34,879 nucleotides of DNA, taken from a bacterium. Lineage in GTDB: Bacteria > Elusimicrobiota > JBDRMW01 > JBDROU01. This document shows, one piece after another, positions 4,299 through 34,879 of the stretch. The stretch spans positions 1-34,879 of the forward strand of contig JBDROU010000016.1 of assembly GCA_043809745.1 (NCBI GenBank). The letters run 5' to 3'. Position 1 is the stretch's first letter, and each line of letters begins with the position of its first letter. The notes below the pieces were generated by a model. It searched no databases, was not told the DNA's origin, and saw only the letters and a program-made list of their open reading frames with translations. The position numbers and the translations under genes are program-made.

Positions 4299-4301
4299 TT
4301 T

Positions 4302-7142: not shown

Positions 7143-7185
7143 TTATTTCAATCCTTTAACCGTGTTTGGTTGCGGTTTTCAGGTT

Positions 7186-9404: not shown

Positions 9405-9412
9405 ATCTGGTT

Positions 9413-10396
9413 TTATCTTTCCTTCTGCCTTTTATACCATTCCCAAATTTTTACAAGCCCCTCTGACAAAGGCATTTTCGGCGAATAATTCAATAATCTT
9501 TTCAATTTAGTTATGTCCGGGCATCTGCGCTTTGGAGATCCTTCCTGAACACCAGCAGGTTTAATTGTAAGCTTGGGATTAACTAAACTGACAATCTTTT
9601 CAGCTAAATTCTTAATAGTTATCTCTTCATCACCGTTACCAACATTAACTGTTTCACCTGCGGCTCCTTCAGACTCTGCAAGCCCTATGGTTGCCTCTAC
9701 CGCATCAGAAGCATAGCAAAATGCCCTTGTATGATCTATAGAGAACACCTCTAAAAATTCATCGCTGTTCTTAGCCTTTATTATCAGTTCTGGTATAACA
9801 TGGTCGTAACCCATTCTCGGGCCGTAAACGTTATGATACCGCACAATTGTAATTGGCACATTATATTTAGCCGAATACTGATAACATGCGGATTCGCCCG
9901 CTATTTTGCTTAATGCATATGTCGTTCTAGGGGACCTGATATCATCCAAACATAAAGGAACTTTTTCATCTGTAGGGATAGGGACGCCGAAGTGCTTTGA
10001 TGTACCAGCATAAACTTCACTTGTAGATGCAAATACGAATCTTTTAAGTTTCTTTTGGGTGGACTTAACCCATTCAAGCAGATTAAACAGTCCGGTTGTA
10101 TTCTCTATAAGCACCCTGTCCGGTCTTTTAATCACATTTCTTACGCCAATCAGCGCTGCCAGATCATAAATATAATCATAATCTTTATCTAATTTTTTGA
10201 ATGCATTCTTACTCGTCAAATCCGCTTTTATAAATTTTATATCATATTTGCCAATTAATGCTTTTATTTCAGCATCTATTTTGCCTCTTTCAAGATTGTC
10301 AATTATATGAACATTATTCTTATCATTATGCAAAAGGGCTTCAAGCATATGAAAACCTATAAATCCTGCGCCACCGGCTATCAGTATCTTGCTCAT
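9413..10396 (-). CDS. legB: NAD-dependent extended-SDR nucleotide-sugar 4,6-dehydratase/epimerase (LegB candidate)
   Basis: 327 aa. It carries the N-terminal GGAGFIGFHMLEAL Rossmann motif and a catalytic YALSK (YxxxK). Its size and its position next to the aminotransferase fit Campylobacter LegB. The sequence alone cannot exclude a 4-epimerase. Confidence 0.7.
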   Translation of the reverse strand: MSKILIAGGAGFIGFHMLEALLHNDKNNVHIIDNLERGKIDAEIKALIGKYDIKFIKADLTSKNAFKKLDKDYDYIYDLAALIGVRNVIKRPDRVLIENTTGLFNLLEWVKSTQKKLKRFVFASTSEVYAGTSKHFGVPIPTDEKVPLCLDDIRSPRTTYALSKIAGESACYQYSAKYNVPITIVRYHNVYGPRMGYDHVIPELIIKAKNSDEFLEVFSIDHTRAFCYASDAVEATIGLAESEGAAGETVNVGNGDEEITIKNLAEKIVSLVNPKLTIKPAGVQEGSPKRRCPDITKLKRLLNYSPKMPLSEGLVKIWEWYKRQKER

Positions 10397-16664: not shown

Positions 16665-18620
16665 TCACTTAATTAAATTTAAATAATACTGTTCTATATC
16701 ATGAATCATTTTGCTTAGATTAAATTCTTTATTTGCAACTTGATGCGCATTTTTACCTATATTTTTTCGAAGGTTTTCATCTTTTAATAATATCTTTATT
16801 TTTTCTGCCAGTTGTTCAGGCATTCGCGGCTCTACTACTAATGCACTTTCATTATCTTTAACCATCTCAACTACACCATTAACCTTTGTTGCTACAATAG
16901 CTTTTTTCATAGCCATAGCTTCTAACAAAATAAACGGGAATCCTTCGGAAATGCTGGATAACACCATTACATCAATTGCAGACAGTATCTCAGGAATATC
17001 CTCTCTTAAACCTAATAAAATACAGTTGTTTTCAAGATTTAATTCATTAATTTTCTCTATAATTTTTTCTTTCTCTTCACCGTCACCAACAATAAGTGTT
17101 TTTGCATCAGGAAAATCCTTTATCACCTCAGCGAAAGCGTCTAAAAAGTACAGATGTCCTTTTTGAGGAGTCATTCTGCCAATTAATCCTATAAGCGGTT
17201 CATTTCCCAAACCAAACTCATTTCGAATCTTATTATTTTCATATAAAGACGGATTAAACTTGCTTAAATCAACTCCGTTATAAATATTTTTTACTTTATA
17301 TGGCGAATAACCGGACTTATCTATTAAATCTTCCGCTAAACTTTTCGATACGGTTATTATGCCGTCTGCCAGATAATAACTTATTTTATCCGCCGCTAAA
17401 TACACCCTTTTCTTTATTTTGCTTACAGGATAATCATACAGGGAATTATGAACTGTGGATATTATCTTAGATTTAACCAGAAATAATTTGGTTAAACGCG
17501 CATAGAAATTAGATCTTGCTCCGTGCGATTGAACAATATCAATATTATTTTTTTTAATGTAATTTGCCAACTTTATAACAGATCTTACACTGAATAACTT
17601 TGTCATATCCACAATTGTTGAGTGTTGGCCGAACTCCTTTAATTTTTCAATCAGTTCGCCGTAATACGGGCATACCACATCCAGCTCAAATAGATTTTTA
17701 TTTAATTTTTGGATTATATATTTTAGATAAACCTCACCGCCAGCCCACTCGCTGGAACCGGTTATATGCAATATCTTTATCTTCCTGTTGGCATTATTTA
17801 GATCCTTTGTCTTTGACGCAACCACCCTAATTGAATTTCCCAGATTAATTGAAGTCAGTTTATATATCCACCAGCCAAAAAATGACAATAACTTTATTAC
17901 TTTTTCTTTATAACAAGTCCTTATAAAAGCCGCCTTTCCCAACACTATAGCTTTTACCTCAAATCCTGCAAGCGATAGGAGCCTTTTCATCGTCTTATGG
18001 CTGAAATAATAAAAATGCTCGCTAACCTCAGAATTTGAGCGCAATTTTGCAGGCCTCAATATTTCCAGTAAAAATCTTATATTCGGGACCTCTATAAACA
18101 ACAAACCGTCATCGGCTAAGCGTTCTCTTGCTTTTACCAGCAGTTCTAACGGATTTCTAAGGTGCTCAAGCACATGCCATAACGCAACCGCATCAAATTT
18201 TTGATCTGCGTAAGGCAGATCATTATTTTCTCCAGATTCAACATCAAATGAGTAATGCTTTTTACAGTATTCCAAAGCATAATGTGATACATCCGCTCCC
18301 TTAACACTCCAATTACCCTTTTCAGCCAGATCCAAAAAGTATCCCATACCGCATCCGATATCCAACAAAGACCCTTTTTTCTTAAAACGTTCTACAAATT
18401 CTAATCTCTCTTTATTTGCTTTTATCAATACATCCTTGGTTATTTCCAGATTGGCCATATATTCATTTTCGTATAATTTCCCCTGCTCTTCCAAAGTAGC
18501 CCTGGGGGATACAAAGACTAAACCGCAGCCCCTGCATTTATTCACAGTATATTCTCTCTTTTTGGCAAGTATTTTTTTTCTTTTAGAATCGCAAAGTATA
18601 CAATCAACCTTTTCAGGCAC
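16665..18620 (-). CDS. fusion protein: N-terminal Zn-ribbon + class I SAM-dependent methyltransferase, C-terminal GT4 glycosyltransferase
   Basis: 651 aa. A CxxC...CxxC pair lies at the N-terminus (CILCDS...CRGCG). SAM motif I LLDIGCGMGYF follows, then an acidic-Leu motif. A hydrophobic linker (about aa 240-265) precedes a complete GT4 domain (ILHITGSSEWAGGEVYL; EGFPFILLEAMAMKKAIVATKVNG). Confidence 0.75.
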   Translation of the reverse strand: MPEKVDCILCDSKRKKILAKKREYTVNKCRGCGLVFVSPRATLEEQGKLYENEYMANLEITKDVLIKANKERLEFVERFKKKGSLLDIGCGMGYFLDLAEKGNWSVKGADVSHYALEYCKKHYSFDVESGENNDLPYADQKFDAVALWHVLEHLRNPLELLVKARERLADDGLLFIEVPNIRFLLEILRPAKLRSNSEVSEHFYYFSHKTMKRLLSLAGFEVKAIVLGKAAFIRTCYKEKVIKLLSFFGWWIYKLTSINLGNSIRVVASKTKDLNNANRKIKILHITGSSEWAGGEVYLKYIIQKLNKNLFELDVVCPYYGELIEKLKEFGQHSTIVDMTKLFSVRSVIKLANYIKKNNIDIVQSHGARSNFYARLTKLFLVKSKIISTVHNSLYDYPVSKIKKRVYLAADKISYYLADGIITVSKSLAEDLIDKSGYSPYKVKNIYNGVDLSKFNPSLYENNKIRNEFGLGNEPLIGLIGRMTPQKGHLYFLDAFAEVIKDFPDAKTLIVGDGEEKEKIIEKINELNLENNCILLGLREDIPEILSAIDVMVLSSISEGFPFILLEAMAMKKAIVATKVNGVVEMVKDNESALVVEPRMPEQLAEKIKILLKDENLRKNIGKNAHQVANKEFNLSKMIHDIEQYYLNLIK

Positions 18621-23264: not shown

Positions 23265-24710
23265 TTAAGCCATTTTTTGAATAACCGGCTTAACGACCCC
23301 TTGATCCCTCACAGGATCTATTTCAATGTCATATAATTTTGGAAGGCTGAATACGACTGCTGTCAAAAACCAAAAAGGTTCCATTATCCTTACAATAATA
23401 AACGTATTAGCTCCAAGGGCTTGAAACATGATGCCGATTAAAATAAAAATAAGACCGAGAGAAAGACTTTTTGATAATGGATGGTCAATTTGCTTATAAA
23501 TCTTCCATGACTGCTTGAATATGGTAATAACAATAGCAAAAAATATCGCCAGGCCTATTATCCCCATCTCACCCAATATCCTTGGATACTGAGCATCAAC
23601 CAGGCCGACACCTGTTGCGCCATACCCCAAGAACGGCCTCTTAGGGAAGAAGTCTTTAATTATCCATTCATAATTACCCAATCTCATAGCAGTGGAAGGT
23701 TCAAGCAGTATTTCCTTGCCAAATACATTAATCTTTCTTGTTCCATAAACGTAATCAGCGCCTTTAACAGTATAGGCTATTCTTTCTGTAACCGCTTGTT
23801 TTGTTGTTATTGAAAACACCGAATAAAAAAGCGCGCCCGCCAAACATGCCCCTATTAGCAGCACTCTTTTACTTCTTGCCAGGAACATAAAAGAAAGAAT
23901 TAAAATCCCAAGTCCTATATAAGAAGCCCTGGAAAGCGTTAAGAAAAACGGATTAATTATAAAAATAATCAAGCCCCAAAAAAATAGAGTTATTTTCCCG
24001 GAATATTCGGAAAGAAAACCAAAAATTAGCCCAAAAACGAGCAAATAATAACCTCCAAGCGTTCCCGGTTCAGCATAAGTCATACCTTCCTCTTTGCCTA
24101 TAGGAGCTTCAAAAGGAGCTGTCAGGCGGTCAACACTTCCTATCTGTGAGTACGCGTATAATGTCACAATCACGCAAGTAAATACTCCGGCGTAAAGATA
24201 GAGTTTAAGCAATCTTTTATCGTTAACATTATTAAGGACCAGAAAAAAGAGCATGTAATATTCAAAATATTTGAGCACAAAAAAGAAACTGCTTGCGGCA
24301 TTTATGTCGCCGCGGTAAATTCCAAGTGTGGTTGAAATGGCCGCTACAACTGAATATGCAATAAGCAGTTTGTTAAGCGGTGTTTTAATAGTAAGCCCAA
24401 TTTCTTTATTTATTGCTATTTTCACTAACCAGGAAATAAATACAAGTATTATCAGAAAATCATCTATTCGTATTACCAGCTCCTTTCTTGACAGCTGCGC
24501 AATAGGTATCTCAGGAGAAAGCATCATAGATAAAACCAGTATTACAATAGCTATATGAGGCCGCACAAATGTAGTAAATGTTAGGAAGAGCAATCCCGCT
24601 AAAGCCAGCGGAATAAACATTGAGGATGTTGCAGTAATAAACTTGCCTACCCATATTGAAATGAGCGCAAAAACAATCAAAAGCGCTGCGGCCTGCCAAT
24701 TACGGCTCAA
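23265..24710 (-). CDS. wzy: O-antigen polymerase/ligase-family membrane protein (Wzy-like)
   Basis: 481 aa with about 11-12 TM helices. A larger periplasmic loop lies in the C-terminal third, as in the Wzy_C/O-antigen ligase family. It lies between wzc and wzx. Confidence 0.75.
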   Translation of the reverse strand: MSRNWQAAALLIVFALISIWVGKFITATSSMFIPLALAGLLFLTFTTFVRPHIAIVILVLSMMLSPEIPIAQLSRKELVIRIDDFLIILVFISWLVKIAINKEIGLTIKTPLNKLLIAYSVVAAISTTLGIYRGDINAASSFFFVLKYFEYYMLFFLVLNNVNDKRLLKLYLYAGVFTCVIVTLYAYSQIGSVDRLTAPFEAPIGKEEGMTYAEPGTLGGYYLLVFGLIFGFLSEYSGKITLFFWGLIIFIINPFFLTLSRASYIGLGILILSFMFLARSKRVLLIGACLAGALFYSVFSITTKQAVTERIAYTVKGADYVYGTRKINVFGKEILLEPSTAMRLGNYEWIIKDFFPKRPFLGYGATGVGLVDAQYPRILGEMGIIGLAIFFAIVITIFKQSWKIYKQIDHPLSKSLSLGLIFILIGIMFQALGANTFIIVRIMEPFWFLTAVVFSLPKLYDIEIDPVRDQGVVKPVIQKMA

Positions 24711-26611
24711 GTTTTATTTTCCTCCTTCTTTTGGCCGGCCTCATTATAATATTTATAGGTAGAGTAATAATATCCATAGCGAGATTCCATCTCCGACGCC
24801 CTTATATCGTTTAGCACCACACCTAAGATGTGCGCTTTTGTGTTCTCTAATTGTATTTTAGTTCTCTTTAACGCCCCTCTTGCCATCTTCCCAACCTGGT
24901 ATACAATTATTACTGAATCTACTTTGTTTGCAATAATCATTGAATCTGCAAAAAGCAAAACCGGCGGACAGTCAAGCACAACCAAATCGAATTCTTTTTT
25001 AAACTGCGCTAATAATCTTCCTATTTCTTCAGAATTAAGCAGATCCACAGGATTGGGAGGGATGGAACCACAAGTTAGTATTTTAAGGTTTTCTAAGCCC
25101 GGAGACTTCAAAACACTCTCAACACCCATCTTCCCCATCATAAAATCCGAAGTACCTTTAATCACATCCTGCCATTTAACATTGCCTTGTAAGATATTGG
25201 TCAATCCCATTTCCTTAGGTAAACCGAAGATTTTGCTTACAGTAGGCCGTCTTAAATCTAATTCAATTAAAAGCGTTTTTATGCCCACCATAGAAGCGGA
25301 TATAGAATAATTCATAGATGTAACACTCTTCCCCTCATTCACTCCAGAACTTGTAAATAATACCGAAGTGCCCCTCTTTTCCGCAGTCCCAAGCTTTACA
25401 TTTGTTCTTAATGTATGATACGCTTCAACAAAAGGAGAACGCAGAGAATGGAAAAATATAAGCGAGTTATACATCTTATCGTACTTTTGTACTTTACTCG
25501 CACCGCCTTTAGATAGTAATGACCTTTCCTTTTTGTCGAACTCAATGTGAGGAATAACCCCTAATACGGGAATTTGAAGGAATGCTTCCACATCTTCTAT
25601 TGTACCTATAGAGGTATCAAGATTTTCTGTTATCAATGCAAATATCAATCCTAGCAGAATGCCCATTAAAATACCTATCATCATATTAAGTTCTTTATTC
25701 GGCCTTACAGGATAAGTGGGAATAGCGGCAGGGGATATTAAGACAATGTTTTGGGATTCATTTGCTTCGGCTAACTCAGCATCTTTATATTTGCGTTTAA
25801 GAAGCATAAATGCCTCTTCATTAATTTTTACATCTCTTACAAAACGAGCTAACTCCAATTCGCTTGCCGGCAGCTCTTTTAATCTTTTCTCTATTTTTGC
25901 TATTTGACTGCTTATTTTTCTCACTTCAGGATGAGCAACAGTATATTTTTTAAGTAAATCGTCCTTTTGCTCCTGAAGTCTTAAGAACCTGCTTGTCAAT
26001 TGATCACCTAACCCTGTAACCTCGTTATTCTCAACAAACTCTCTTCTGGTTTCTTCAGTTATTTTAAGCTTTTCTTCCGCTTGCCTTAGTTGTTCGCCAA
26101 TAAATTCTTTTATTTCGCGGCTGTTTTTAGAGCGCGCTTCTAAATTCTTGGACATAAAAGCCTTAACTGCTTCGTTAGATAAAACAGCCGCTTCTTCAGG
26201 ATTTGTAGAAATACCAACAATCTGTATAAGGTTAGTATCCCTTACCCTTTTGGCTTCGATCTTTGAACCTACACGGCCTATAATGCTGTCTATCTGAACT
26301 CTATCTGTTAAACCTTCCAGAAGACCTAAATTTTTTGCCAATTCCTCATAAACGATCGGGCTGTTGATAATTCTAACATACGTAACCGTTTCAGTCCATG
26401 AATCATAACTGGCAAATTCTATTCCTAAATCCCTGCCTAATTTGGTACCCCTCTCTATCTGTATAGTAGCTGATGTTTCAAACACCGGATCCTGCAAACT
26501 CGTATATATAAATGTAGAAAGCAGTACAAATACAAAGGTAAGAGTAACGGTAAGATACCGTCTTTTTATTATTCTCCAGTAATCATGCAGATTTAATTCA
26601 TATTGGGCCAT
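24707..26611 (-). CDS. wzc: polysaccharide co-polymerase / bacterial tyrosine autokinase (Wzc-like, PCP-2a)
   Basis: 634 aa. It has an N-terminal Wzz-like domain with two TM helices and a coiled-coil periplasmic region. The C-terminal P-loop ATPase has Walker A SSGVNEGKS, and the tail is tyrosine-rich (ESRYGYYYSTYKYY). Confidence 0.85.
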   Translation of the reverse strand: MAQYELNLHDYWRIIKRRYLTVTLTFVFVLLSTFIYTSLQDPVFETSATIQIERGTKLGRDLGIEFASYDSWTETVTYVRIINSPIVYEELAKNLGLLEGLTDRVQIDSIIGRVGSKIEAKRVRDTNLIQIVGISTNPEEAAVLSNEAVKAFMSKNLEARSKNSREIKEFIGEQLRQAEEKLKITEETRREFVENNEVTGLGDQLTSRFLRLQEQKDDLLKKYTVAHPEVRKISSQIAKIEKRLKELPASELELARFVRDVKINEEAFMLLKRKYKDAELAEANESQNIVLISPAAIPTYPVRPNKELNMMIGILMGILLGLIFALITENLDTSIGTIEDVEAFLQIPVLGVIPHIEFDKKERSLLSKGGASKVQKYDKMYNSLIFFHSLRSPFVEAYHTLRTNVKLGTAEKRGTSVLFTSSGVNEGKSVTSMNYSISASMVGIKTLLIELDLRRPTVSKIFGLPKEMGLTNILQGNVKWQDVIKGTSDFMMGKMGVESVLKSPGLENLKILTCGSIPPNPVDLLNSEEIGRLLAQFKKEFDLVVLDCPPVLLFADSMIIANKVDSVIIVYQVGKMARGALKRTKIQLENTKAHILGVVLNDIRASEMESRYGYYYSTYKYYNEAGQKKEENKT

Positions 26612-26645
26612 TGGAATAATCGAACCTTTTTATACGCGCTCTCAC

Positions 26646-27818
26646 CTAATTAGAGGCAACAATAATTAATAATATAAAATTAACGAACGTAAGCCAGGGT
26701 ACAAGCTGCTGCATAAACCACGTTGACTTAGCAAAACCCTTTTTTGGCACATAAACTGTGTCACCCGGTTCAAGTTCAATATCAAGATCAAATTGATTCT
26801 TGTCTAAAACTTTGTTCATATTTACTTCATAAACCTCCATATTGGGAGCTTTTCCTCTGTATACCTTGACCCTTTGTGTTACAGCTTCATCGGTGAATCC
26901 GCTTGCCAAGGTAATTACTTCCAATATCTTTAATCCCTTCTTATGCTTATATGAACCGGGATTTTCAACCTCCCCTATAACATATACATCTTTTTCAATT
27001 TTACCGACCTCTACCACGTCACCGGGAAAAAGTGTAAAATCTTTTGTAAAATCTCCGCTCTTAAATACATCTTCAAGATTTAACTCGAATACCTTCCTGT
27101 CTTGGCCCTCTCCCCTATATACCCTTATATCTCTAAGGTTAGCTTTATCTGTAAACCCTCCTGCTTGAGATATCGATTCAAGCAATCGAATCTCATCTTT
27201 ATAATCGTGGTCGCCCGGCCTTGTTACTTCACCGGTTAAAAATACTTTCTTTTTGCTGTACCTTTTTACAGCTATGGATACCTCCGGCTTAGAGACATAA
27301 ATTTTAAGTTTGTTCACAAGTTCTTTTCCCAATTTCTCTTTAGTTTCCCCGCTTGCTAAAACCTCGCCGATCATTGGCATTGTAATTCTGCCGTCCGGCT
27401 GAACTATTACCTCCCGGCTCAATTCCTCTGCGGGATATACTATAATACTCAACAAATCTCCCACTTCTATCTTATAATCCTTTAGATCAGTTAACTTCAC
27501 AAACTCAACTTTCGGCTTTGCCTCCGGTTTTTCAACCTTAACTGCTGGGGATTTTAATGGTTTTTGTCTAAGAGCTTGTAATTTATTATACTCTTTCTCT
27601 ACTATTGACAGATCCACACCGTATGGATCGTATTTAGATTTAATTCTATCAAGAATAACCATAAGATCGTTTGGTTCTGCGCCCTTCGCCTTTGCCTTTT
27701 CATAATACTTCATTGAGTTCTCAAACTGCTCGTAAATATCGGTCTGCGCTAAACCATTACAGGATATTCCCGTAATAAAGCTAAAAATTAAAAAACTGAA
27801 TAATAATATTTTTTTCAT
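26646..27818 (-). CDS. wza: outer-membrane polysaccharide export protein (Wza-like; Poly_export + SLBB domains)
   Basis: The most likely start is ATG 27818 (MKKILLFSFLIFSFITGISC signal peptide). The track's longer form begins at TTG 27839. A Poly_export-like motif IEVGDLLSIIVYP is followed by repeated SLBB-like units and a C-terminal amphipathic/hydrophobic helix. The ATGA overlap with the upstream gene gives start 27818 against stop 27815. Confidence 0.8.
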   Translation of the reverse strand: MKKILLFSFLIFSFITGISCNGLAQTDIYEQFENSMKYYEKAKAKGAEPNDLMVILDRIKSKYDPYGVDLSIVEKEYNKLQALRQKPLKSPAVKVEKPEAKPKVEFVKLTDLKDYKIEVGDLLSIIVYPAEELSREVIVQPDGRITMPMIGEVLASGETKEKLGKELVNKLKIYVSKPEVSIAVKRYSKKKVFLTGEVTRPGDHDYKDEIRLLESISQAGGFTDKANLRDIRVYRGEGQDRKVFELNLEDVFKSGDFTKDFTLFPGDVVEVGKIEKDVYVIGEVENPGSYKHKKGLKILEVITLASGFTDEAVTQRVKVYRGKAPNMEVYEVNMNKVLDKNQFDLDIELEPGDTVYVPKKGFAKSTWFMQQLVPWLTFVNFILLIIVASN

Positions 27819-28222
27819 TTTACATGTATAACCGAACAAACCTTACCATCAGGATTTGTCCCTTTCTGTAAATTTGTTGGATCTAAAATCTCCATATCAT
27901 CAACTATAAAATTGTACCCGAAGCTCTCCATAGGAAGTTCTTGTATTATATACCAATTATTCGCGTTTTGCTTCTTCATGGGCTTTTTGTACCACTGCGT
28001 GAAATCACCAATTATTTCAACCTTGTTTGCGGGTGCTTCATATCGAAATATTATTTTTTTCTTCTGCATTTCTTGATTTACTGCTTCTTCCACTCCTTCC
28101 GTTTTTACAGTTTTACTAAGAAAAACTTGACCAGCATTAAACTTAACTAATAACGCCCCGACCGTAGCAACCATCATTATTAACAATACAATTACCAAGA
28201 TTGAGAAAAAAAAGTTCTTCAT
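27815..28222 (-). CDS. small membrane-anchored protein with CBM48 / AMPK-beta glycogen-binding-like domain
   Basis: 135 aa. An N-in TM helix (FFFSILVIVLLIMMVATVGALLV) is followed by IIFRYEAPANKVEIIGDFTQW...WYIIQELPMESFGYNFIVDDMEILDPTN...SVIHVK. This matches the AMPK1_CBM/CBM48 pattern (FRW..GG.EV.L.GSFN.W....L......F.....LP.G.H.YKF.VDG.W..DP). The gene is ATGA-coupled to wza. Confidence 0.65.
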   Translation of the reverse strand: MKNFFFSILVIVLLIMMVATVGALLVKFNAGQVFLSKTVKTEGVEEAVNQEMQKKKIIFRYEAPANKVEIIGDFTQWYKKPMKKQNANNWYIIQELPMESFGYNFIVDDMEILDPTNLQKGTNPDGKVCSVIHVK

Positions 28223-28630
28223 TTATTGATACTCTTTTATTTTCTCTACTACTGAATACACCAACTTCTGCAGCTCATTAACTTTGTTTTCAAGTAAAAC
28301 AGGTGTTGCCGTACCCTTTGTGCAAACCATTGACTCTAACTGCAAAAGCTTTTTTTCATGCATATCGCACCTTGACGCAAGGTCATTAAGCCTGTTTTCT
28401 ACAATCTTAAAAAGCGTATTAAATTCTTCATTGGCCATTCTTTTCATATTCCCTCCGGGTTTAACTGCTTTTTTAGATGGTTTATCTTCTATTATGAATT
28501 GTATAAATAGAAATGCTAAACCAAGTTCCATCAACAGTAAGATCAGTAAAATAAATATCGGGAATTGGCTTAGGAAAAGTATCAGTTCTTTCATAAATTC
28601 TTCAATACGTAATTTAATACTATACTGCAC
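28223..28630 (-). CDS. hypothetical small membrane protein (one TM helix + C-terminal coiled coil)
   Basis: 135 aa. It has a hydrophobic segment (ILFLSQFPIFILLILLLMELGLAFLFIQFII) and a heptad-like C-terminus. Its stop abuts the start of the CBM48 gene with no gap. No family was recognised. Confidence 0.45.
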   Translation of the reverse strand: MQYSIKLRIEEFMKELILFLSQFPIFILLILLLMELGLAFLFIQFIIEDKPSKKAVKPGGNMKRMANEEFNTLFKIVENRLNDLASRCDMHEKKLLQLESMVCTKGTATPVLLENKVNELQKLVYSVVEKIKEYQ

Positions 28631-28655
28631 TAGCTGTATTTAATACTACAAGAAT

Positions 28656-28680
28656 TTCCGTATTATGTCAATTTACGGAA
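28656..28680. other. 7-bp inverted repeat (TTCCGTA-n11-TACGGAA) spanning the stop codon of the HD-GYP gene
   Basis: The repeat was read directly from the sequence. It lies in the 42-bp gap between the HD-GYP gene and the small membrane-protein gene. No U-tract follows on the minus strand, so it is not a canonical intrinsic terminator. Confidence 0.25.
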
Positions 28681-29968
28681 TGACTACCCAGTTATGCGAC
28701 AGTAAATATAAGGCAAAGTTTTTATCTTTTACACGAATCTTAGTCTCATCAACAGGCCCAATAATCTGAAGCACAGGATTATGAATTAAATTAACCCTCT
28801 TTTTTGGCTTAAGGCGGTCATAATCTAGGGTAATAATTATATCTATCTGCGGCCTTAGAGGATATTGCGGATTTACAGCAACGACCTCAGCTATCTCACC
28901 TGAACTCAAACGCACATAGCTGCCTATAGGGTAGAGACCTATTATCTCAATAAATTTTTTTGTTAATTGAATATTAAAATCATTGCCTATCTCCCTTCCC
29001 TCTACCAGCCATCTGCAGACATCATGCGGGAGGAATCTGCCTCTGTAAGCTCTGTGATGGCTTAAGGCCTCATAAGTATCAAGCAACCCTATAATCTGCG
29101 CATAATTATGAATCTGTTCGCCTTTTATACCAGTTGGATATCCCGCTCCAGTCTGGCGTTCATGGCATTGATATACAACTTCTGCAATCAGCCTTTTCAA
29201 TTCTTCGGAAATAAAACTCAAGCCATAAATAATTTTTCTGCCTTCTTCTGAATGCTTTTTAATTTCTTCATATTCACTTTCGCTTAAACGCTCTATCTTG
29301 CTGATCAGTGCTGTTTTTCTAACTAAACCAAGATCGTGCAGTAATGCCGCTAACCCAAGATCAACGCATTCTTCTTTATTGTACCCTACAGCTAACCCTA
29401 AGCGGATAGATAATATACATACATTCACAACATGGCTGTACAAGTATTCAGGCGTTGTTATCCTGTTGGTAAACCGTAAAATAAAGTTATCATTGTCCGC
29501 AAACTTGTTTACAATATTTTTAATAAGCTCGAACAATTTTGAATCAAAATATTTATGATCAACATTTACAGTGCGGTAAAACTCTCTCACGCTTTTTAGC
29601 AGCCCAAAATACAACTCATTGGCCTCTTTATCCAACCTCGGATCTTCCGATTTTTCTTCCTGCCTAATCTCTTTGAGTTCACTAATGCCTATATCAACCG
29701 GAGGCATGGATACTTTCTTAGCGAAATGCAGTCCTTCTGAAGGTTCTTTTTGCATTCCTTTTCCTAAATCATAAGTTTGTGAATAAAATTTTGCCGGTGC
29801 TGGCGGGATAGACACAGGAGTGGCGGACTGCGGCGGCTGGGCGGGTGGTGCTGATGATTGTTGTTGTATTACTGGACCCTCAGGTTGAGGAAACGAAGTT
29901 GGTGAGCGTTCCTTCTCAAGCTGCTCAATCACCTTTTTCTTTTTTAATATATCAGAAATTCTTACCAT
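28673..29968 (-). CDS. HD-GYP domain c-di-GMP phosphodiesterase with Pro/Gln-rich N-terminal region
   Basis: 431 aa. The HD motif is LAALLHDLGL and the GYP motif is HERQTGAGYPTG. The N-terminal region of about 60 aa is low-complexity (PTSFPQPEGPVIQQQSSAPPAQPPQSATPVSIPPAPA). No REC domain is present. The gene overlaps the histidine kinase gene by 17 nt. Confidence 0.8.
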   Translation of the reverse strand: MVRISDILKKKKVIEQLEKERSPTSFPQPEGPVIQQQSSAPPAQPPQSATPVSIPPAPAKFYSQTYDLGKGMQKEPSEGLHFAKKVSMPPVDIGISELKEIRQEEKSEDPRLDKEANELYFGLLKSVREFYRTVNVDHKYFDSKLFELIKNIVNKFADNDNFILRFTNRITTPEYLYSHVVNVCILSIRLGLAVGYNKEECVDLGLAALLHDLGLVRKTALISKIERLSESEYEEIKKHSEEGRKIIYGLSFISEELKRLIAEVVYQCHERQTGAGYPTGIKGEQIHNYAQIIGLLDTYEALSHHRAYRGRFLPHDVCRWLVEGREIGNDFNIQLTKKFIEIIGLYPIGSYVRLSSGEIAEVVAVNPQYPLRPQIDIIITLDYDRLKPKKRVNLIHNPVLQIIGPVDETKIRVKDKNFALYLLSHNWVVIP

Positions 29969-31334
29969 GCTGGTTTATGTTGAAGTATAGTTTTACTACA
30001 GTCCCTTCATCACTTTCCACAGTAACTGCTCCATTGTGTATCTTCATAGTCCTTAAAACATTATATAGACCCAATCCCTGATGATGCGATTTCGTTGTAT
30101 AATATGGTTTAAATACAGAGTCTAACTGCTCTTTAGCTATACCCACTCCGGTATCGGTGACTGCAACACATACATTATTTATTTTCTCGTGAAATGAAAT
30201 CTCCACTGAAATCTTACCATCTTTTATTACTGCTTCCACTGCATTATTGAGTATATCTTTTACAGCTCTAACAATTGAGCTTTTATCTAAGATAACTTTC
30301 GGGATATTACTCTTATATTTTTTCTCAATACTAATAGATCTCTCGCGAAAAATAGGTTTAAGCTCTATTATAATGCTTTCTATCATATGCTCAATATTTT
30401 CTTCCTTAAAAGTAAGAGGTTTTCTGGTAGATACATCAAGGAAGTACAAAAGCATGCTCGACACCCTCTTTAATTCCGTTAATATCTGTACCAGTTCATC
30501 CAACAATGATTTATTTATTTTTCTACTTCCAAGCAGATTATTATAATAAATGATAATTTCAGTAATTATATCATGTAATTTAAGCGAAAAAGCGGTAGAT
30601 AAACCCTCTTGTTCCTGAAATTCTATCTCAAATCTAGTTTTTAACAATGCAAGCTCTGCTCCAGATTCATCGATTTTTTTCTCGAGCTCCTGCTTCGTCT
30701 TCTCTTTTTCCGCCAACAGTTTCTGCTCTTTCCCATTAATAATTTCTTCTAATCTATGCCTTTCTTCTCTTGCTTCTTCCAGTTGGGCTTCCAACTGCTT
30801 TTGCTGTTTTTCAAAATCCTCTTTTATGCTGGCAGTTTTTCTTTGAAGAGCTTCCTTCTCCAGCGCCAGATCAAGCATTATCTTCTGGCTTGCAAGGGCT
30901 ATAACAGCAGAAGGAGAGTGCAGCTCTGTCTCCTCGAGAACTTCACCCGGCATCAACCCTTTCCTGAGTATTATATTTCTTTTCTCCAGCTGCTGTATTT
31001 TTCTCTCAAGCCCGGATTGGGTTTGCACATTCTCCACTTCTTGTATTTTTGATTCCAGCTTTTGTTCATAAAGTTGTTTATCTTCGCTATAACGGTTTTC
31101 CAGCTCATGAATTCTAAATGTAAGGTTTCCCAGGGAAGATTTTAGGTTTGTTGATTCGCTTCTTAATGATTCCTTTTCTTGCTCAGCATTCTTAAAACGT
31201 TCATTCCAGAATAATCTCTCGTTTTCATATTTATTCTTCCAGTACTGAGGCGGCAAATCAAAAACCGAATCGGCAGGGCTATCCGTCTTTTGCTGATTAT
31301 AGTCGTCTTTTTTGATATTTTCTTCTTTATCCAT
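29952..31334 (-). CDS. cytoplasmic sensor histidine kinase with long N-terminal coiled coil (no TM, no cognate response regulator nearby)
   Basis: 460 aa. About 250 aa of E/K/Q-rich heptad sequence forms the N-terminal half. A putative H-box is KLHDIITEI. A complete HATPase_c domain follows (N-box ILNNAVEA, G1 DTGVGI, F-box VFKPYYTTK, G2 GLGLYNV). Confidence 0.75.
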   Translation of the reverse strand: MDKEENIKKDDYNQQKTDSPADSVFDLPPQYWKNKYENERLFWNERFKNAEQEKESLRSESTNLKSSLGNLTFRIHELENRYSEDKQLYEQKLESKIQEVENVQTQSGLERKIQQLEKRNIILRKGLMPGEVLEETELHSPSAVIALASQKIMLDLALEKEALQRKTASIKEDFEKQQKQLEAQLEEAREERHRLEEIINGKEQKLLAEKEKTKQELEKKIDESGAELALLKTRFEIEFQEQEGLSTAFSLKLHDIITEIIIYYNNLLGSRKINKSLLDELVQILTELKRVSSMLLYFLDVSTRKPLTFKEENIEHMIESIIIELKPIFRERSISIEKKYKSNIPKVILDKSSIVRAVKDILNNAVEAVIKDGKISVEISFHEKINNVCVAVTDTGVGIAKEQLDSVFKPYYTTKSHHQGLGLYNVLRTMKIHNGAVTVESDEGTVVKLYFNINQHGKNF

Positions 31335-31340
31335 ATTTCA

Positions 31341-31346
31341 TCCCCT
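31341..31346 (-). promoter_or_regulatory. Shine-Dalgarno-like site for the histidine kinase gene
   Basis: The minus-strand sequence reads ...ATAGGGGATGAAAT-ATG, placing GGGGA 6-7 nt upstream of the ATG at 31334. Confidence 0.4.
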
Positions 31347-31533
31347 ATGTTATTATATAATAATACCATTTTAATAAAAATATATTAATTAATTTAATAG
31401 GCCTGTTTTTTAACATCCGGAAGAACTTCTTTAGATAAACTTCATAGGAATTTCTTACTTACGGCAAGCATATCAAAAACCACAAAGGATTCTGCCGAGG
31501 CGCGAACTTTGTGAAAAATCTTTTAACAGATTA
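31347..31533 (-). promoter_or_regulatory. AT-rich intergenic region; probable promoter for the polysaccharide/regulatory operon and end of the upstream two-gene module
   Basis: This is the only sizeable non-coding gap (about 200 bp) on the minus strand between 1 and 34641. It is very AT-rich (ttattatataataataccattttaataaaaatatattaattaatttaat). The minus strand contains several TATAAT-like hexamers. No precise -35/-10 pair can be asserted. Confidence 0.3.
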
Positions 31534-32688
31534 CTAAGAAATTTTATCCCCGCAATTTGGACAAAATTTTGAACCTTGAGCGACTTCAACATTACATTTG
31601 CCGCATTTCACAGATTCAATCTTTACTTTATTCCCGCAATTTGAACAAAATTTCGAATTTCCTTCTATTTCGGTATCACAATTAGCGCATTTAATCTTGG
31701 GTTTCTCAACGGTTTTACCGCAATTGGAACAAAACTTTGAGCCTATCGGTACCGCTGTGTTGCAGTGAGGGCATACTATCCCCTGGTTCCCAGCCTGTTG
31801 ATTCTGCTGTTGTGCATTACCCATCATCTGATTTGCCATCTGACCGAAACCCGCCCCCATCCCCATTCCCATCCCCGCACCCATACCAGCACCCATCATA
31901 CCGCCCGCAGCGCCTTCATTTTTAGCCGCTCCTTCCATTGTGTCAAATGTCCTCTTGGTTTTATAAAGTTGATCGCCCATAAGCTTATACTCGGCTTTTT
32001 CGGCGAGCATTTTCTTCAATTTTTTAACGCTTTCATCTTCCTCAGGAACGTTAATTGAGCTTAAATAAAAGTTTACAATTTCAATTCCAAAATTAGCGAA
32101 TTCTCCGCTAACGCTTTCCTTTAAGGCTTTGGAAATTTCGTTGAGTTCAGTGCTGATTGTTAATATTGATATTTTATCATTTATTATTTTTTCTGATATA
32201 TAATCTTTTATTTTGGACATTAGTACGCCGCGAAAATAATCGAGTATGTTTTGCGCGGTAAATTCCGTCATAGTTCCAACCATACCGACAACAAGTTTTT
32301 GTGAATCATTCACCTTCATCCCGAATTGGCCGAATGCCCTGACCGGCACAAAAATTTGATATGCCGGTTCCAGAATAGGTATCGGCTCCCGCGTCCCCCA
32401 TTTTAGATCCATGTTTACTGCTTTATTGATATAATAGATCTCTGCTGCAAACGGTGTTTCATTCCCGAAAGGAATATTCACCAAGTTTCTTAACAATGGG
32501 ATATTGGCAGTTTTCAGCGTATGCGTACCGGGACCGAGCGTATCCAATATCTTTCCACCCTTAAAGAAAAGGACCTCCTGAGCCTGATTCACAATTACCT
32601 GTGTCCCCCATGATAACTGATCACTGGCCCACCTCCATACAAATACATCACCGGGTCCGTCATACTTAACGCGATCGATTAATGCCAT
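31534..32688 (-). CDS. SPFH/Band-7 family protein (YdjI-like, Band_7_1-type) with Gly/Met-rich linker and three C-terminal zinc ribbons
   Basis: 384 aa. The N-terminus MALIDRVKYDGPGDVFVWRWASDQLSWGTQVIVNQAQEVLFFKGGKILDTLGPGTHTLKTANIPLL matches the YdjI-like SPFH family. A low-complexity stretch GAAGGMMGAGMGAGMGMGMGAGFGQMANQMM follows. The C-terminus has three tandem CxxC-x11-CxxCG units. Confidence 0.75.
   Translation of the reverse strand: MALIDRVKYDGPGDVFVWRWASDQLSWGTQVIVNQAQEVLFFKGGKILDTLGPGTHTLKTANIPLLRNLVNIPFGNETPFAAEIYYINKAVNMDLKWGTREPIPILEPAYQIFVPVRAFGQFGMKVNDSQKLVVGMVGTMTEFTAQNILDYFRGVLMSKIKDYISEKIINDKISILTISTELNEISKALKESVSGEFANFGIEIVNFYLSSINVPEEDESVKKLKKMLAEKAEYKLMGDQLYKTKRTFDTMEGAAKNEGAAGGMMGAGMGAGMGMGMGAGFGQMANQMMGNAQQQNQQAGNQGIVCPHCNTAVPIGSKFCSNCGKTVEKPKIKCANCDTEIEGNSKFCSNCGNKVKIESVKCGKCNVEVAQGSKFCPNCGDKIS
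31537..31779 (-). repeat. three tandem ~84-bp coding repeats (zinc-ribbon modules)
   Basis: The DNA repeats ccgcaatttggacaaaattttgaacc / ccgcaatttgaacaaaatttcgaattt / ccgcaattggaacaaaactttgagcc at about 31550, 31635 and 31718. They encode C-x2-C-x11-C-x2-C-G units separated by KIK/KIE linkers. Confidence 0.7.
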
Positions 32689-32718
32689 AAAAACCTCCGT
32701 TAATTAAAATTTTATACT

Positions 32719-34641
32719 CTATCCTGCTCTGTATTTCGCTAACTCCTTCATTCTACAATATATTTCAGTACGTTTTCTATTTATTTGTAAGTTTACATCT
32801 GTTTTTGAAAGGCTGATACTCTTGCCAAAAGATTCCAGGAAATGACGCTCATCTTTTGAAATATCACCTTCAGCAAAGCTCATCTCAATCATCTCATCCA
32901 GCCAAACCCTGCCCTCTTTAAAACTTGAAGGATTTGGCATATCAATAGTACCGGCTTTATATGAAGCTGTAATTTCATCCAAATTTTGTTTAGGTAGTTT
33001 TCTCTTTGCCATATAAGATCTAATATATTTCATCTCTTTATCATCGATTTTGCCGTCTGCCATCATAACTGAATATATCCCATAAAGAAGGGCAACCGGA
33101 TCAACAACTTCAGGCAGTTTTATCTCTTCACATCTGGATTTAGCTTTCTCCTTCAACCTCATATCATTCCATTCTGTCCTGGTTATAATTGAAGAAAGCA
33201 TCCATTCTTTATTTTGATTTGCGACTTCCAGGCCGCAGTATTCGCATACAGATTGCATATTCGATGTAACCGGAGCCCCGCAACCCGGGCAGTGCGATGA
33301 TTGCAACCCCGATTCTGCATTTGTTTTTGCATTGCGCTTGCGTGAAAGCGTAAAAACATGGGAATAGAAATTTTTACTTGTATTTTTTTGCGGTTTGCCG
33401 TCAATATTTACAACCTTATACCCGCTCCAATTTATCAGGACATCTACCGTATCTAATAAATCTCCCTGGCAGACACGGCTTACTTCGGATACTCCGATGG
33501 CTATCTCATCATAATAATAATTCTCTTTCTTTATAAATGAATCAACCGAATCACAAAAATCTGCTACGGCCACCTTTTTCAAGAAATCCGTTTTCCCAGC
33601 AATTAATGCTTTATGATAACGCCAGAATATCACTGATGTCCGGTCTTCTACGAATTGTATGTTAAAAGCAGGATCCAGCTGTTGAAACTCCCATACACCG
33701 GGTATTTCTGAGATGCCTTCGCGTACGCGCCATTGTGACTCCTGCGTAATTTTTGAAAGAATCCAATCATATTCCCCGGAAGAGATGAGCGAGTTGCAGG
33801 AATCACATTTCACTGTATCGCTCATCTTCAGATAAGCTCCGCAATTCGGGCATGACCCTTCTATTAACCCGGGTTTTTCAGATGTTTTTGCTCCAGGCCT
33901 TCTTAAAAAAGTCCAATATTCCACAAAAGTTACGTTAGAAATATTGCTTCCGCGCACAATTCTTTTTGTCTCTGTAGAAATCCAGTAATCAACGGCTGAG
34001 GCATAAATCTTAATATTTATCGTTTCAAAATATGAATCAGATTGAACCGACACAATTTCACATTTATTAACCGCCATATTCTTCATTATATTAGCAATCT
34101 TCCATTTGTTCTGAATTTCGAATTGTATATTATATCGTTCTACAACACCATCTGAAACAAATGCCTGCACATTTTCCATATTTTTTTGTATCCAGGCTTC
34201 CTGAATCTTAAAGAAAGCGATGCGCACCCGTTTCAAAAACTTATCAGGATCAAATGACGGATCATGATTTTTTATTTTTTTATAAGATAAATTTATCATT
34301 GTTTCCGTTTGCCGCTGCCTGCCCCTTTTTATGGTATTTGAAACATGTACATCTTTTACTTTAGAACCGCCTTTCCATGAAAAAATCACAAACATAACCA
34401 GCAGCGGAACACCAATCACCGGATTTCTGAAAGCCAGATATATTAAAAGGCCCAATATATCGCCGCCACCGCTTCCGCCTCCACTGCCGTAATTACCGCC
34501 TCCACCGCCAAAAGAATCGCCGCCTCCGGCGCGCGCCCATACATATTCACTAATAAATACCAAAATCTCCGCTGTAATAAGAATAAAAATAAAGTTATAT
34601 TTTTTTATTAAATGTTTAATTCTATTTATAAAAACACCCAT
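32719..34641 (-). CDS. membrane protein: TM - Gly-rich segment - TM, then 2 x (Tim44-like/NTF2-like domain + zinc ribbon), then C-terminal TerB domain
   Basis: 640 aa. Two hydrophobic helices flank GGGDSFGGGGGNYGSGGGSGGGD. Tim44-like module 1 is RIAFFKIQEAWIQKNMENVQAFVSDGVVERYNIQFE...VTFVEYWTF, followed by CPNCGAYLKMSDTVKCDSC. Module 2 has the analogous region plus CPGCGAPVTSNMQSVCEYCG. The C-terminus has a TerB signature (VALLYGIYSVMMADGKIDDKEMKYIRSYM...EGDISKDERHFLESF). The stop lies 30 nt from the SPFH gene start. Confidence 0.65.
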   Translation of the reverse strand: MGVFINRIKHLIKKYNFIFILITAEILVFISEYVWARAGGGDSFGGGGGNYGSGGGSGGGDILGLLIYLAFRNPVIGVPLLVMFVIFSWKGGSKVKDVHVSNTIKRGRQRQTETMINLSYKKIKNHDPSFDPDKFLKRVRIAFFKIQEAWIQKNMENVQAFVSDGVVERYNIQFEIQNKWKIANIMKNMAVNKCEIVSVQSDSYFETINIKIYASAVDYWISTETKRIVRGSNISNVTFVEYWTFLRRPGAKTSEKPGLIEGSCPNCGAYLKMSDTVKCDSCNSLISSGEYDWILSKITQESQWRVREGISEIPGVWEFQQLDPAFNIQFVEDRTSVIFWRYHKALIAGKTDFLKKVAVADFCDSVDSFIKKENYYYDEIAIGVSEVSRVCQGDLLDTVDVLINWSGYKVVNIDGKPQKNTSKNFYSHVFTLSRKRNAKTNAESGLQSSHCPGCGAPVTSNMQSVCEYCGLEVANQNKEWMLSSIITRTEWNDMRLKEKAKSRCEEIKLPEVVDPVALLYGIYSVMMADGKIDDKEMKYIRSYMAKRKLPKQNLDEITASYKAGTIDMPNPSSFKEGRVWLDEMIEMSFAEGDISKDERHFLESFGKSISLSKTDVNLQINRKRTEIYCRMKELAKYRAG

Positions 34642-34805
34642 TTGTTTTTATACTCCTTTACTTTAATAGTATAAATGAATAGTACTGTTTTTCAAGAATA
34701 AGTATTAGTCCGTGGCAATCCCAGTTTTTTAAGTTAACCTTGACCACGCATTATTCACTTAGTATAATTTTATTGAAAATAGATTTTAGTAAATTTTTTC
34801 AAACA

Positions 34806-34811
34806 GGAGGG
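34806..34811 (+). promoter_or_regulatory. Shine-Dalgarno (AGGAGG) for the plus-strand lipoprotein gene
   Basis: AGGAGG is followed by an 8-nt spacer (gcaaaaat) and then ATG at 34820. Confidence 0.6.
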
Positions 34812-34819
34812 CAAAAATA

Positions 34820-34879
34820 ATGAAATACTTAATTACAGCCTTGCTTTTCGCAGCTTTATTAAGTTCCAGCGGATGCGTT
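34820..34879 (+). CDS. 5' end of a probable lipoprotein gene (runs off the window)
   Basis: The sequence ATGAAATACTTAATTACAGCCTTGCTTTTCGCAGCTTTATTAAGTTCCAGCGGATGCGTT translates to MKYLITALLFAALLSSSGCV. This is a signal peptide ending in a lipobox-like LSSSGC. It is the only plus-strand coding start in the window. Confidence 0.6.
   Translation, partial: MKYLITALLFAALLSSSGCV

Follow-up and report, generated by a model that had tools for sequence, protein, structure and literature searches.

The subject of this analysis is the head of an exopolysaccharide (EPS) gene cluster in a member of the Elusimicrobiota, encoded on contig JBDROU010000016.1; the 34,879-bp stretch analyzed, here called the window, is a whole contig of a metagenome-assembled genome. 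Two genes lead the cluster, one encoding a histidine kinase-like (HK-like) protein and the other a divergent HD-GYP protein, and genes for Wza/Wzc polysaccharide export follow. This locus head resembles an uncommon exchange of partners in a cyclic di-GMP (c-di-GMP) module of Wza/Wzc loci that is widespread but undescribed, and it does not look like a two-component system. The general pattern at such loci is an ATP-binding partner together with an HD-GYP protein of this subfamily, and in the lineage of the window a GHKL kinase-like protein stands in the slot normally held by an AAA ATPase. Noteworthy here are the rare gene pair, a subfamily with atypical catalytic residues and the apparent exchange of partners; the functional part we infer, and the organism is uncultured.

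The HK-like/HD-GYP pair is real and forms a conserved unit, in keeping with a first-pass annotation made from the sequence, whose coordinates, 17-nt overlap and flanking gaps also held; all the genes lie on the minus strand. The pair is known from three loci, namely the window and two contigs designated L001 and L002. L001 has the same gene order as the window (HK-like, HD-GYP, small transmembrane protein, CBM48 protein, wza), and L002 carries the HK-like, HD-GYP and small transmembrane protein genes. The HK-like/HD-GYP junction is tight in each, with overlaps of 17 nt in the window and 8 nt in L002 and a gap of 7 nt in L001. Synteny is retained at HD-GYP identities of 51-68% across the lineage orthologs, and the motif YQCHER is identical in the HD-GYP proteins of all three loci.

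Both further HK-like orthologs are partial and were found on contigs reached via the HD-GYP gene; they comprise the last 105 amino acids (aa; 51% identity) in L001 and the last 254 aa (29% identity) in L002. Word-indexed searches of 5.8 billion proteins with the single HK-like sequence and with a three-sequence profile recovered no ortholog but the protein itself, an exhaustive phmmer search of 1.84 billion representatives gave no close homologue, and pattern scans of metagenome contigs and GTDB genome contigs added no further ortholog. All of these searches returned only generic kinases matching the CA (GHKL ATP-binding) domain. Exact look-ups of the HK-like and HD-GYP proteins of the window led to no other contig.

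The HK-like protein matched Pfam HATPase_c (3.9e-19) and had no HisKA match; a weak similarity to HATPase_c_2 (E 0.006) was under threshold. Its AlphaFold (AF2) model, built from a 40-sequence alignment, had a mean pLDDT of 81. The coiled coil of about 250 aa proposed in the first-pass annotation was recovered in this model as a helical region with one break (residues 29-268; E 19%, L 13%, K 11%, Q 9%), the second helix of which continues unbroken into DHp helix 1. With a maximum KD19 of 1.19, the protein has no hydrophobic and hence no transmembrane segment. All boxes of the CA domain are present, including the N box (N364), the G1 box (D394-x-G-x-G398), F408 and the G2 box (G420-x-G422); these residues fall on invariant or near-invariant columns of kinase alignment A3, and the CA motifs are kept in the L001 and L002 orthologs. 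The best Foldseek match of the C-terminal half was the cytoplasmic DHp+CA part of ZraS (TMt 0.88, rmsd 2.2 Å, 230 columns), and HK853, KinB, WalK, CusS and DivL were matched as well. As modeled, the HK-like protein is a soluble protein with a coiled-coil input region and a DHp-CA core.

The designation as a soluble histidine kinase was only partly borne out: solubility stood, but the label "histidine kinase" is doubtful because there is no HisKA match and no histidine at the acceptor column, and because the only histidine of the DHp-like hairpin is replaced in L002. Searches of the isolated DHp segment gave no match at E<=10 to HisKA, HisKA_2, HisKA_3 or HWE. The acceptor column corresponded to L251 (30582-30584) in the phmmer alignment with HK853 and in a MAFFT alignment with 39 kinases, to I257 in a local-pair MAFFT alignment with 35 short kinases, and to I262 in the BLAST alignment with P0317. 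The sole hairpin histidine, H254 (30573-30575, in the context H-D-I-I-T), lies three residues past L251 and was on the acceptor column in none of these four independent alignments. In the L002 ortholog, the equivalent of H254 is Gln and that of L251 is Leu, and a His occurs six residues earlier. By heptad-register analysis both the L251 and the H254 registers fit, and helix 1 is very hydrophobic (I256, I257, I260-262, Y263, Y264). Taken together, the alignments lean towards the lack of an acceptor histidine, and the HK-like protein appears to combine the fold and ATP-binding features of class I histidine kinases with no clear acceptor.

The HD-GYP protein matched Pfam HD_5/HD (HD_5, 1e-18). 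Among PDB sequences its best match was PmGH of Persephonella marina (4mcw; phmmer 4.9e-16), and V-cGAP3 and PA4781 were also matched. An AlphaFold model from 120 sequences (pLDDT 83, pTM 0.79) gave Foldseek matches to DvhD (top), PmGH, PA4781 and Bd1817. About 100 relatives share the architecture of this protein and its N-terminal signature M-(V)-R-[IL]-S-D-I-L-K-K; judged by source names, most of them belong to Omnitrophota, Elusimicrobiota, Deltaproteobacteria-type or further uncultured lineages. In alignment A2, which holds the 120 best relatives, M1, R3, S5, D6, I7, K9 and K10 predominate in the N-terminal columns.

The first-pass annotation had described a Pro/Gln-rich tail in place of a receiver (REC) domain. 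The REC domain is indeed missing, but the stretch is an internal linker between the N-terminal helix and the stalk, and it differs in length and sequence between relatives. Nor is the REC-less architecture unusual, as had been proposed: it is common to the approximately 100 relatives, and it is unremarkable because most HD-GYP proteins in Pfam show no other recognized domain (bioRxiv 10.1101/2021.11.05.467447). The stalk aligned with the N-regions of DUF3391-containing relatives (hhalign probability 83%, E 8.5e-6). The protein itself had no match to PF11871, which some distant relatives carry, and the AF2 model contained no strands in the N-terminal region. The C-terminal beta domain has the conserved motif YPxGSxVxLxxGExAxV...N...PxRP, and a profile search of PDB sequences for similarity of this domain, for example to PilZ, gave nothing significant (best E 0.13).

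Residue-by-residue comparison with PmGH revealed that seven of its eight metal ligands align with the same residues in the HD-GYP protein of the window. The kept positions are E185 (E174 in the window), H189 (H179), H221/D222 (H211/D212), H250 (H239), H277 (H269) and D305 (D297). The GYP motif is also retained (G276-Y277-P278, with Y277 equivalent to PmGH Y285), the guanine-contacting R314 and K317 of PmGH correspond to R306 and R309, and R306 is conserved in 119 of the 120 relatives. However, D183, K225 and H276 of PmGH are replaced by T172, L215 and C268 (29165-29167), respectively. The HDxGK lysine is thus Leu, and the signature reads CHERQTGAGYP as against HHExh(D/N)GxGYP, keeping HE and GYP with Cys for the first His and Thr for D/N. 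Alanine substitutions at D183, K225 or H276 each essentially abolish c-di-GMP hydrolysis by PmGH (PMC4159591). Because the equivalents of these three residues are replaced, the proposed function in c-di-GMP turnover as a phosphodiesterase is doubtful, and the expected agreement of the motifs with the metal-binding residues applied to all ligands except the position of H276.

Such replacements are a trait of the family. The H276 column of A2 contains H 51, E 36, V 12, I 9 and C 5, and the K225 column M 64, K 21 and L 17. Only 21 of the 120 relatives, which all belong to the more distant ones (the closest being P0045), retain Lys together with the HH pair, and the other 99 lack the Lys, the first His of the pair, or both. 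Compared with catalytically competent HD-GYPs, the protein of the window departs in the Lys/Asp feature and is ambiguous in the HH pair. On this evidence, nucleotide and metal binding are likely retained, and efficient c-di-GMP hydrolysis is doubtful.

Gene neighborhoods were read for eight independent HD-GYP relatives, and none had a partner with kinase-like identity. In L004/L005, L059, L061 and L062, an AAA_22 ATPase gene lies directly upstream of the HD-GYP gene, overlapping it or a few bases apart. These ATPases matched TIGR03015 ("XrtA/PEP-CTERM system-associated ATPase") with E-values of 1e-68 to 1e-73, at scores of 231-248 bits that are under the family cut-off of 324.5. In L062, the overlap is again 17 nt, and the protein P0088 (595 aa) is a natural fusion of a TIGR03015-like ATPase with an HD-GYP domain. 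The coupling and fusion of these ATPases to HD-GYP proteins suggest a role of that ATPase family in c-di-GMP signaling.

The link of the HD-GYP protein to Wza/Wzc export, which had been proposed from the window, was corroborated by unrelated loci. L061 has the order ATPase, HD-GYP, Wza, Wzc; L062 has a priming transferase, Wza (TIGR03027, 223 bits), Wzc, ATPase and HD-GYP, with a GGDEF gene 3 kb off. In L006, the HD-GYP gene lies amid polysaccharide genes that include a TIGR03015-like ATPase. A search of the accessible literature on PEP-CTERM loci and HD-GYP found no paper describing an association, and the association of HD-GYP, ATPase and Wza/Wzc appears to be previously undescribed.

Five of the eight neighborhoods additionally carry, just downstream of the HD-GYP gene, a cassette of ScmC (PF27840), PqqD, a radical-SAM-SPASM protein and a peptide of 48-65 aa. 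These cassettes adjoin more distant HD-GYP members and resemble a SynChlorMet-like cassette for maturation of RiPPs (ribosomally synthesized and post-translationally modified peptides); the ScmC-like protein has weak similarity to HprK-related kinases.

Several known systems resemble parts of this locus. RpfC/RpfG shares the theme of kinase-type and HD-GYP proteins that are encoded together and tied to extracellular polysaccharide, but the HD-GYP protein of the window has no REC domain, and hence is not of the RpfG family, and its partner has no recognizable H-box. With neither of these elements, His-Asp phosphotransfer between the two proteins would be impossible as encoded. PmGH, an active tri-iron phosphodiesterase, has in common with the HD-GYP protein the fold, the retained metal ligands, the GYP motif and the guanine-reading Arg; apart from the three substitutions, the latter differs in an N-terminal domain that is not GAF and in the extra C-terminal beta domain. 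In DvhD of Desulfovibrio vulgaris (9rbz), the HD-GYP domain is a non-hydrolyzing c-di-GMP receptor that signals via helical stalks (PMC13090378). As the top structural match, DvhD is a precedent for a receptor-type HD-GYP, but DvhD, a transmembrane PAS protein, is part of a Lap-like adhesin system, its HD has become SQ and its HH has become MN, and it binds no metal. The HD-GYP protein of the window is much less degenerate because HD, H269 and the other ligands are kept.

The relation to the Bd1817 family (DUF3391-HD-GYP) is looser and consists of the helical stalk, with about 258 columns aligned by Foldseek. The DUF3391 N-domain is composed of four strands and two long helices. In the protein of the window the beta-sheet part of this domain is absent, and a short conserved helix and the disordered linker are found instead. 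Variable Pro-rich inserts are known in the N-terminal region of the Bd1817 family (bioRxiv 10.1101/2021.11.05.467447).

For the HK-like protein, the nearest functional analogy is provided by pseudo-kinases of the DivL type. DivL has a DHp-CA fold with no acceptor His and works via protein-protein contacts, and CckA is a c-di-GMP-binding kinase. The orphan kinase SgmT binds c-di-GMP too, and matrix composition is under its control (PMC3509222). With DivL, CckA and SgmT, however, the HK-like protein has only the generic kinase core in common.

EPS loci of the XrtA/PEP-CTERM type are similar in that the Wza of the window scored above the cut-off of TIGR03027 (XrtA/PEP-CTERM export protein; 189.6 versus 180 bits) and in that HD-GYP relatives are coupled to TIGR03015-like ATPases by Wza/Wzc. 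The Wzc of the window passed TIGR01007 (174.9 bits, cut-off 108) and was below the PEP-CTERM-specific cut-offs. Unlike those loci, the window has no AAA_22/TIGR03015-like ATPase, exosortase or PrsK/PrsR among its proteins, and the similarity of the HK-like protein to PrsK is confined to the CA domain (62 bits versus a cut-off of 300).

The features of the window and of the related loci are listed in Table 1. The first-pass annotation had counted four head genes within 28223-31334; three lie there, and the second small membrane protein is encoded just beyond, by gene 4.

Table 1. Positions of the features at the head of the EPS cluster and of genes in loci of HD-GYP relatives (locus names precede the positions; all others refer to the window)
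Feature	Positions	Strand	Remarks
Tim44-like/TerB/zinc-ribbon membrane protein	32719-34641	-	640 aa, Gly-rich N-terminus
SPFH (Band_7_1) protein	31534-32688	-	Gly/Met/Gln-rich stretch, then three C-terminal zinc ribbons
AT-rich gap upstream of HK-like gene	31335-31533	-	199 nt; weak extended -10 promoter-like site at 31360-31388
HK-like gene	29952-31334	-	460 aa, soluble; helical/coiled-coil N-terminus, DHp-like hairpin, GHKL (HATPase_c) domain
Long helices of HK-like protein, residues 29-268	30531-31250	-	AF2; 29-126 and 141-268, break at 127-140
DHp-like helical hairpin, residues 235-302	30429-30632	-	AF2; second helix 275-302
CA (GHKL ATP-binding) domain, residues 310-452	29979-30407	-	alpha/beta; pLDDT 94-98
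HK-like/HD-GYP overlap	29952-29968	-	17 nt, HK-like stop versus HD-GYP start; possible translational coupling
Divergent HD-GYP gene	28673-29968	-	431 aa, no REC domain
N-terminal helix MVRISDILKK, residues 1-21	29906-29968	-	subfamily signature; AF2 helix 4-21
Pro/Ser/Gln-rich disordered linker, residues 22-88	29705-29905	-	pLDDT <50; P 19%, S 13%, Q 12%
Helical N-domain/stalk, residues 95-168	29465-29686	-	related to helical part of DUF3391 (Bd1817 family)
HD-GYP catalytic-type domain, residues 172-343	28940-29455	-	residue-by-residue alignment to 4mcw
C-terminal beta-rich domain and terminal helix, residues 345-431	28676-28936	-	five strands within 351-406, pLDDT >90
Gap between HD-GYP gene and gene 3	28631-28672	-	as given by annotated start of gene 3
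Sigma-70-like site TTGACA-17-TAGTAT	28643-28671	-	directly 3' of HD-GYP stop, 5' of gene 3
Gene 3, small membrane protein	28223-28630	-	one N-terminal transmembrane helix, C-terminal coiled-coil-like region
Gene 4, membrane-anchored AMPK1_CBM/CBM48-type protein	27815-28222	-	Pfam AMPK1_CBM 8e-11
wza, outer-membrane polysaccharide export	26646-27839	-	Poly_export and SLBB; overlaps CBM48 gene by 25 nt
wzc, chain-length determinant/tyrosine autokinase	24707-26611	-	Wzz, GNVR, AAA_31
TIGR03015-like ATPase gene	L004:2338-3168
TIGR03015-like ATPase gene	L059:6157-7008
TIGR03015-like ATPase gene	L061:5197-5994
TIGR03015-like ATPase gene	L062:5109-6017
ScmC cassette	L004:4798-10585
ScmC cassette	L006:9082-11266
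ScmC cassette	L058:8518-10948
ScmC cassette	L059:9615-12371
ScmC cassette	L060:8140-10779

Genes 3 and 4 and wza abut or overlap. Gene 3, which had no Pfam or NCBIfam match, encodes one strongly hydrophobic N-terminal segment (KD19 2.98), then a stretch rich in Lys/Arg and a region that is helical. It shares 54% identity with its ortholog in L001 and 37% with that in L002, and its true start is probably M13 (ATG at 28592-28594, 123 aa) because orthologs begin at the equivalent of Met13, as in L001. By the positive-inside rule, the C-terminal part of the protein should be cytoplasmic. Gene 4 encodes an N-terminal anchor (KD19 3.15 at residues 8-26) and has a 39% identical ortholog in L001; its CBM48/AMPK-beta-type module is presumably periplasmic. 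A periplasmic polysaccharide-binding accessory of a Wza/Wzc system, conserved in L001, would be unusual.

With the M13 start, the gap between the HD-GYP gene and gene 3 measures 78 nt in the window; it is wider in L001 (170 nt) and in L002 (249 nt), and the L002 gap includes a TATAAT. The EPS genes may have a promoter of their own at the sigma-70-like site in this gap; the site is treated as a lead only because the promoter scan was not enriched over shuffled sequence. The terminator scan likewise showed no enrichment over shuffled sequence, and it found no terminator-like site on the minus strand between the head genes and wza. Co-transcription of the pair with wza, taken as given in the first-pass annotation, is a possibility only. 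An Rfam scan of 26400-34879 identified nothing relevant as a c-di-GMP riboswitch or other RNA element, and comparison of the intergenic regions after the HD-GYP gene in the window, L001 and L002 showed no obvious shared element. In L002 (1960-2140), the last approximately 25 nt of the HD-GYP gene and about 60 nt downstream ("cgtaactgggttatccttgactagg...gggacagtccccattcc") occur in tandem two to three times before gene 3, for which either an artefact of the assembly or a true tandem duplication might account.

The run of co-directional, tightly packed EPS genes numbers about 25. Beyond wzc, about 22 more polysaccharide genes of the same direction encode glycosyltransferases, a flippase, a Wzy-like polymerase, an asparagine-synthase-like amidotransferase, a nonulosonic-acid pathway and a WbuX/HisH/HisF-like trio. 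The nonulosonic-acid (legionaminic/pseudaminic-type) genes at 817-10396 on the minus strand comprise a dehydratase, a DegT aminotransferase, a CBS-nucleotidyltransferase, a PglD-like acetyltransferase, NeuB, a 2-epimerase and a CMP-transferase. The WbuX amidotransferase with its HisH/HisF-like partners in this region points to an acetamidino-modified sugar in the polymer. Also inside the EPS cluster (16665-18620, minus strand), one gene encodes a 651-aa protein in which a SAM-dependent methyltransferase domain is fused to a GT4 glycosyltransferase. Upstream of the head, the SPFH gene and the Tim44/TerB gene seem to form a stress- or membrane-associated pair with no relation to EPS.

The explanation we favor, tentatively and at somewhat less than an even chance, is that a c-di-GMP-binding HD-GYP protein with slow or no hydrolysis is coupled physically to an ATP-binding partner and modulates Wzc/Wza export. 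Gene content and order, junctions, synteny, folds, motifs and the recurrent coupling or fusion to ATPases are the observations on which this explanation builds, and from them we infer complex formation, c-di-GMP binding, the direction of signaling and the target. The HD-GYP protein would be translationally coupled to its upstream ATP-binding partner next to Wza/Wzc, and most likely it would sense c-di-GMP or, as a "trigger" phosphodiesterase, hydrolyze it very slowly, and not be a bulk hydrolase. In the lineage of the window, this partner would be a soluble dimeric coiled-coil DHp-CA protein that binds ATP and has no canonical phospho-histidine box. In a complex of the two, the nucleotide state of the HD-GYP protein and the ATP-dependent state of the partner would control each other, and the output would affect, at the post-translational level, how EPS is assembled and exported by Wzc/Wza. 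The route may run through the two small membrane proteins, one with a cytoplasmic coiled coil and the other with a periplasmic CBM48 module. We consider it rather unlikely that the history can be put more specifically, namely that a GHKL pseudo-histidine kinase displaced a PEP-CTERM-type AAA ATPase as obligatory partner of an impaired HD-GYP receptor, as one form of a general, undescribed switch of ATPase and HD-GYP sensor that gates Wza/Wzc-dependent export post-translationally and elsewhere would also act on radical-SAM/SPASM peptide-maturation cassettes.

Several points weigh against the receptor model, and most of them would favor a true orphan kinase with autophosphorylation on H254 and an unlinked response regulator as its target, together with an active phosphodiesterase in which Cys268 substitutes as metal ligand, the two setting the c-di-GMP level and EPS expression. 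The DHp+CA fold is very near those of ZraS and HK853, and all ATP-binding boxes are present. H-[DE]-x-x-[TN] is the kinase/phosphatase motif of HisKA kinases, and H254-D255-I-I-T258 fits it; a hairpin shorter by 3-5 residues would bring H254 into register as a genuine acceptor. The non-conservation of the H-box rests on n=2, L002 being the only ortholog that covers it. The swap of an ATPase for a GHKL protein is read from gene position alone, and the interaction, c-di-GMP binding and enzymatic function in the model are all predicted. For the HD-GYP protein, seven of the eight metal ligands and the GYP motif are retained, and the protein may have real phosphodiesterase activity because Cys268, which is conserved in the three orthologs, could bind metal. 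In L059, moreover, the ATPase/HD-GYP pair is immediately preceded by genes for a PAS-HisKA-HATPase kinase and for a single-domain receiver (4332-6154), an arrangement which hints that the subfamily can come under two-component control via a stand-alone receiver. A response regulator could also be encoded elsewhere in the genome of the window. Nevertheless, we regard the orphan-kinase explanation as improbable, if deserving of attention: no HisKA-family profile matched, H254 was off the acceptor column in all four alignments and is Gln in L002 although the CA motifs are kept there, and the equivalents of D183, K225 and H276, at each of which substitution disabled PmGH (PMC4159591), are all replaced. 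Domain scans of the window with Pfam and NCBIfam, in which the receiver search covered open reading frames of at least 120 aa, found no Response_reg domain in the 34.9 kb, which agrees with the statement in the first-pass annotation that no response regulator is encoded nearby.

An intact and conserved ATP-binding domain with no conserved acceptor His, translationally coupled to the HD-GYP gene, might also belong to a kinase that phosphorylates its neighbors, such as the R-I-S-D motif or the linker of the HD-GYP protein or the small membrane proteins, in the manner of SpoIIAB/RsbW or PDK/BCK. SpoIIAB and RsbW are GHKL Ser kinases, and PDK and BCK are mitochondrial kinases. The conserved Ser5-Asp6 beside the long disordered linker and the subthreshold HATPase_c_2 similarity would agree with such activity, but the N-terminal motif is kept in about 100 relatives, the partner is not kinase-like in any of the eight neighborhoods read, and the fold corresponds to DHp-CA histidine kinases and not to the anti-sigma type, so that we give this explanation little credence. 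A similarly small probability is assigned to the pair being a separate transcription unit, with an EPS promoter downstream of the HD-GYP gene and an adjacency to EPS genes that has no direct functional meaning. The TTGACA-17-TAGTAT site right after the HD-GYP stop and the gap, which is longer in L001 and L002 than in the window and holds TATAAT in L002, are consistent with a separate unit. Against it, synteny with gene 3, the CBM48 gene and wza is kept despite the divergence of the HD-GYP proteins, more distant subfamily members again adjoin Wza/Wzc, the promoter scan gave no enrichment, and a promoter of its own would still allow a functional link.

That c-di-GMP controls the secretion of exopolysaccharides is well documented where these are made by synthase-type systems, such as cellulose, alginate and Pel; to our knowledge, it is far less documented for Wzx/Wzy-Wza/Wzc pathways. 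The evidence presented here suggests that a whole subfamily of divergent HD-GYP proteins, common in uncultured groups such as Omnitrophota and Elusimicrobiota, is connected with Wza/Wzc loci by way of an ATP-binding partner coupled to it and that, in one rare lineage, this partner is a kinase-like protein with no recognizable H-box. Caution is advisable where such genes are automatically annotated as "histidine kinase" and "c-di-GMP phosphodiesterase". If the favored explanation is true, the subfamily would represent a new class of c-di-GMP effectors in which the HD-GYP domain is a receptor with an ATPase output, the HK-like protein would be a further natural pseudo-histidine kinase, and the unexplained "PEP-CTERM-associated ATPase" of TIGR03015 would gain a function.

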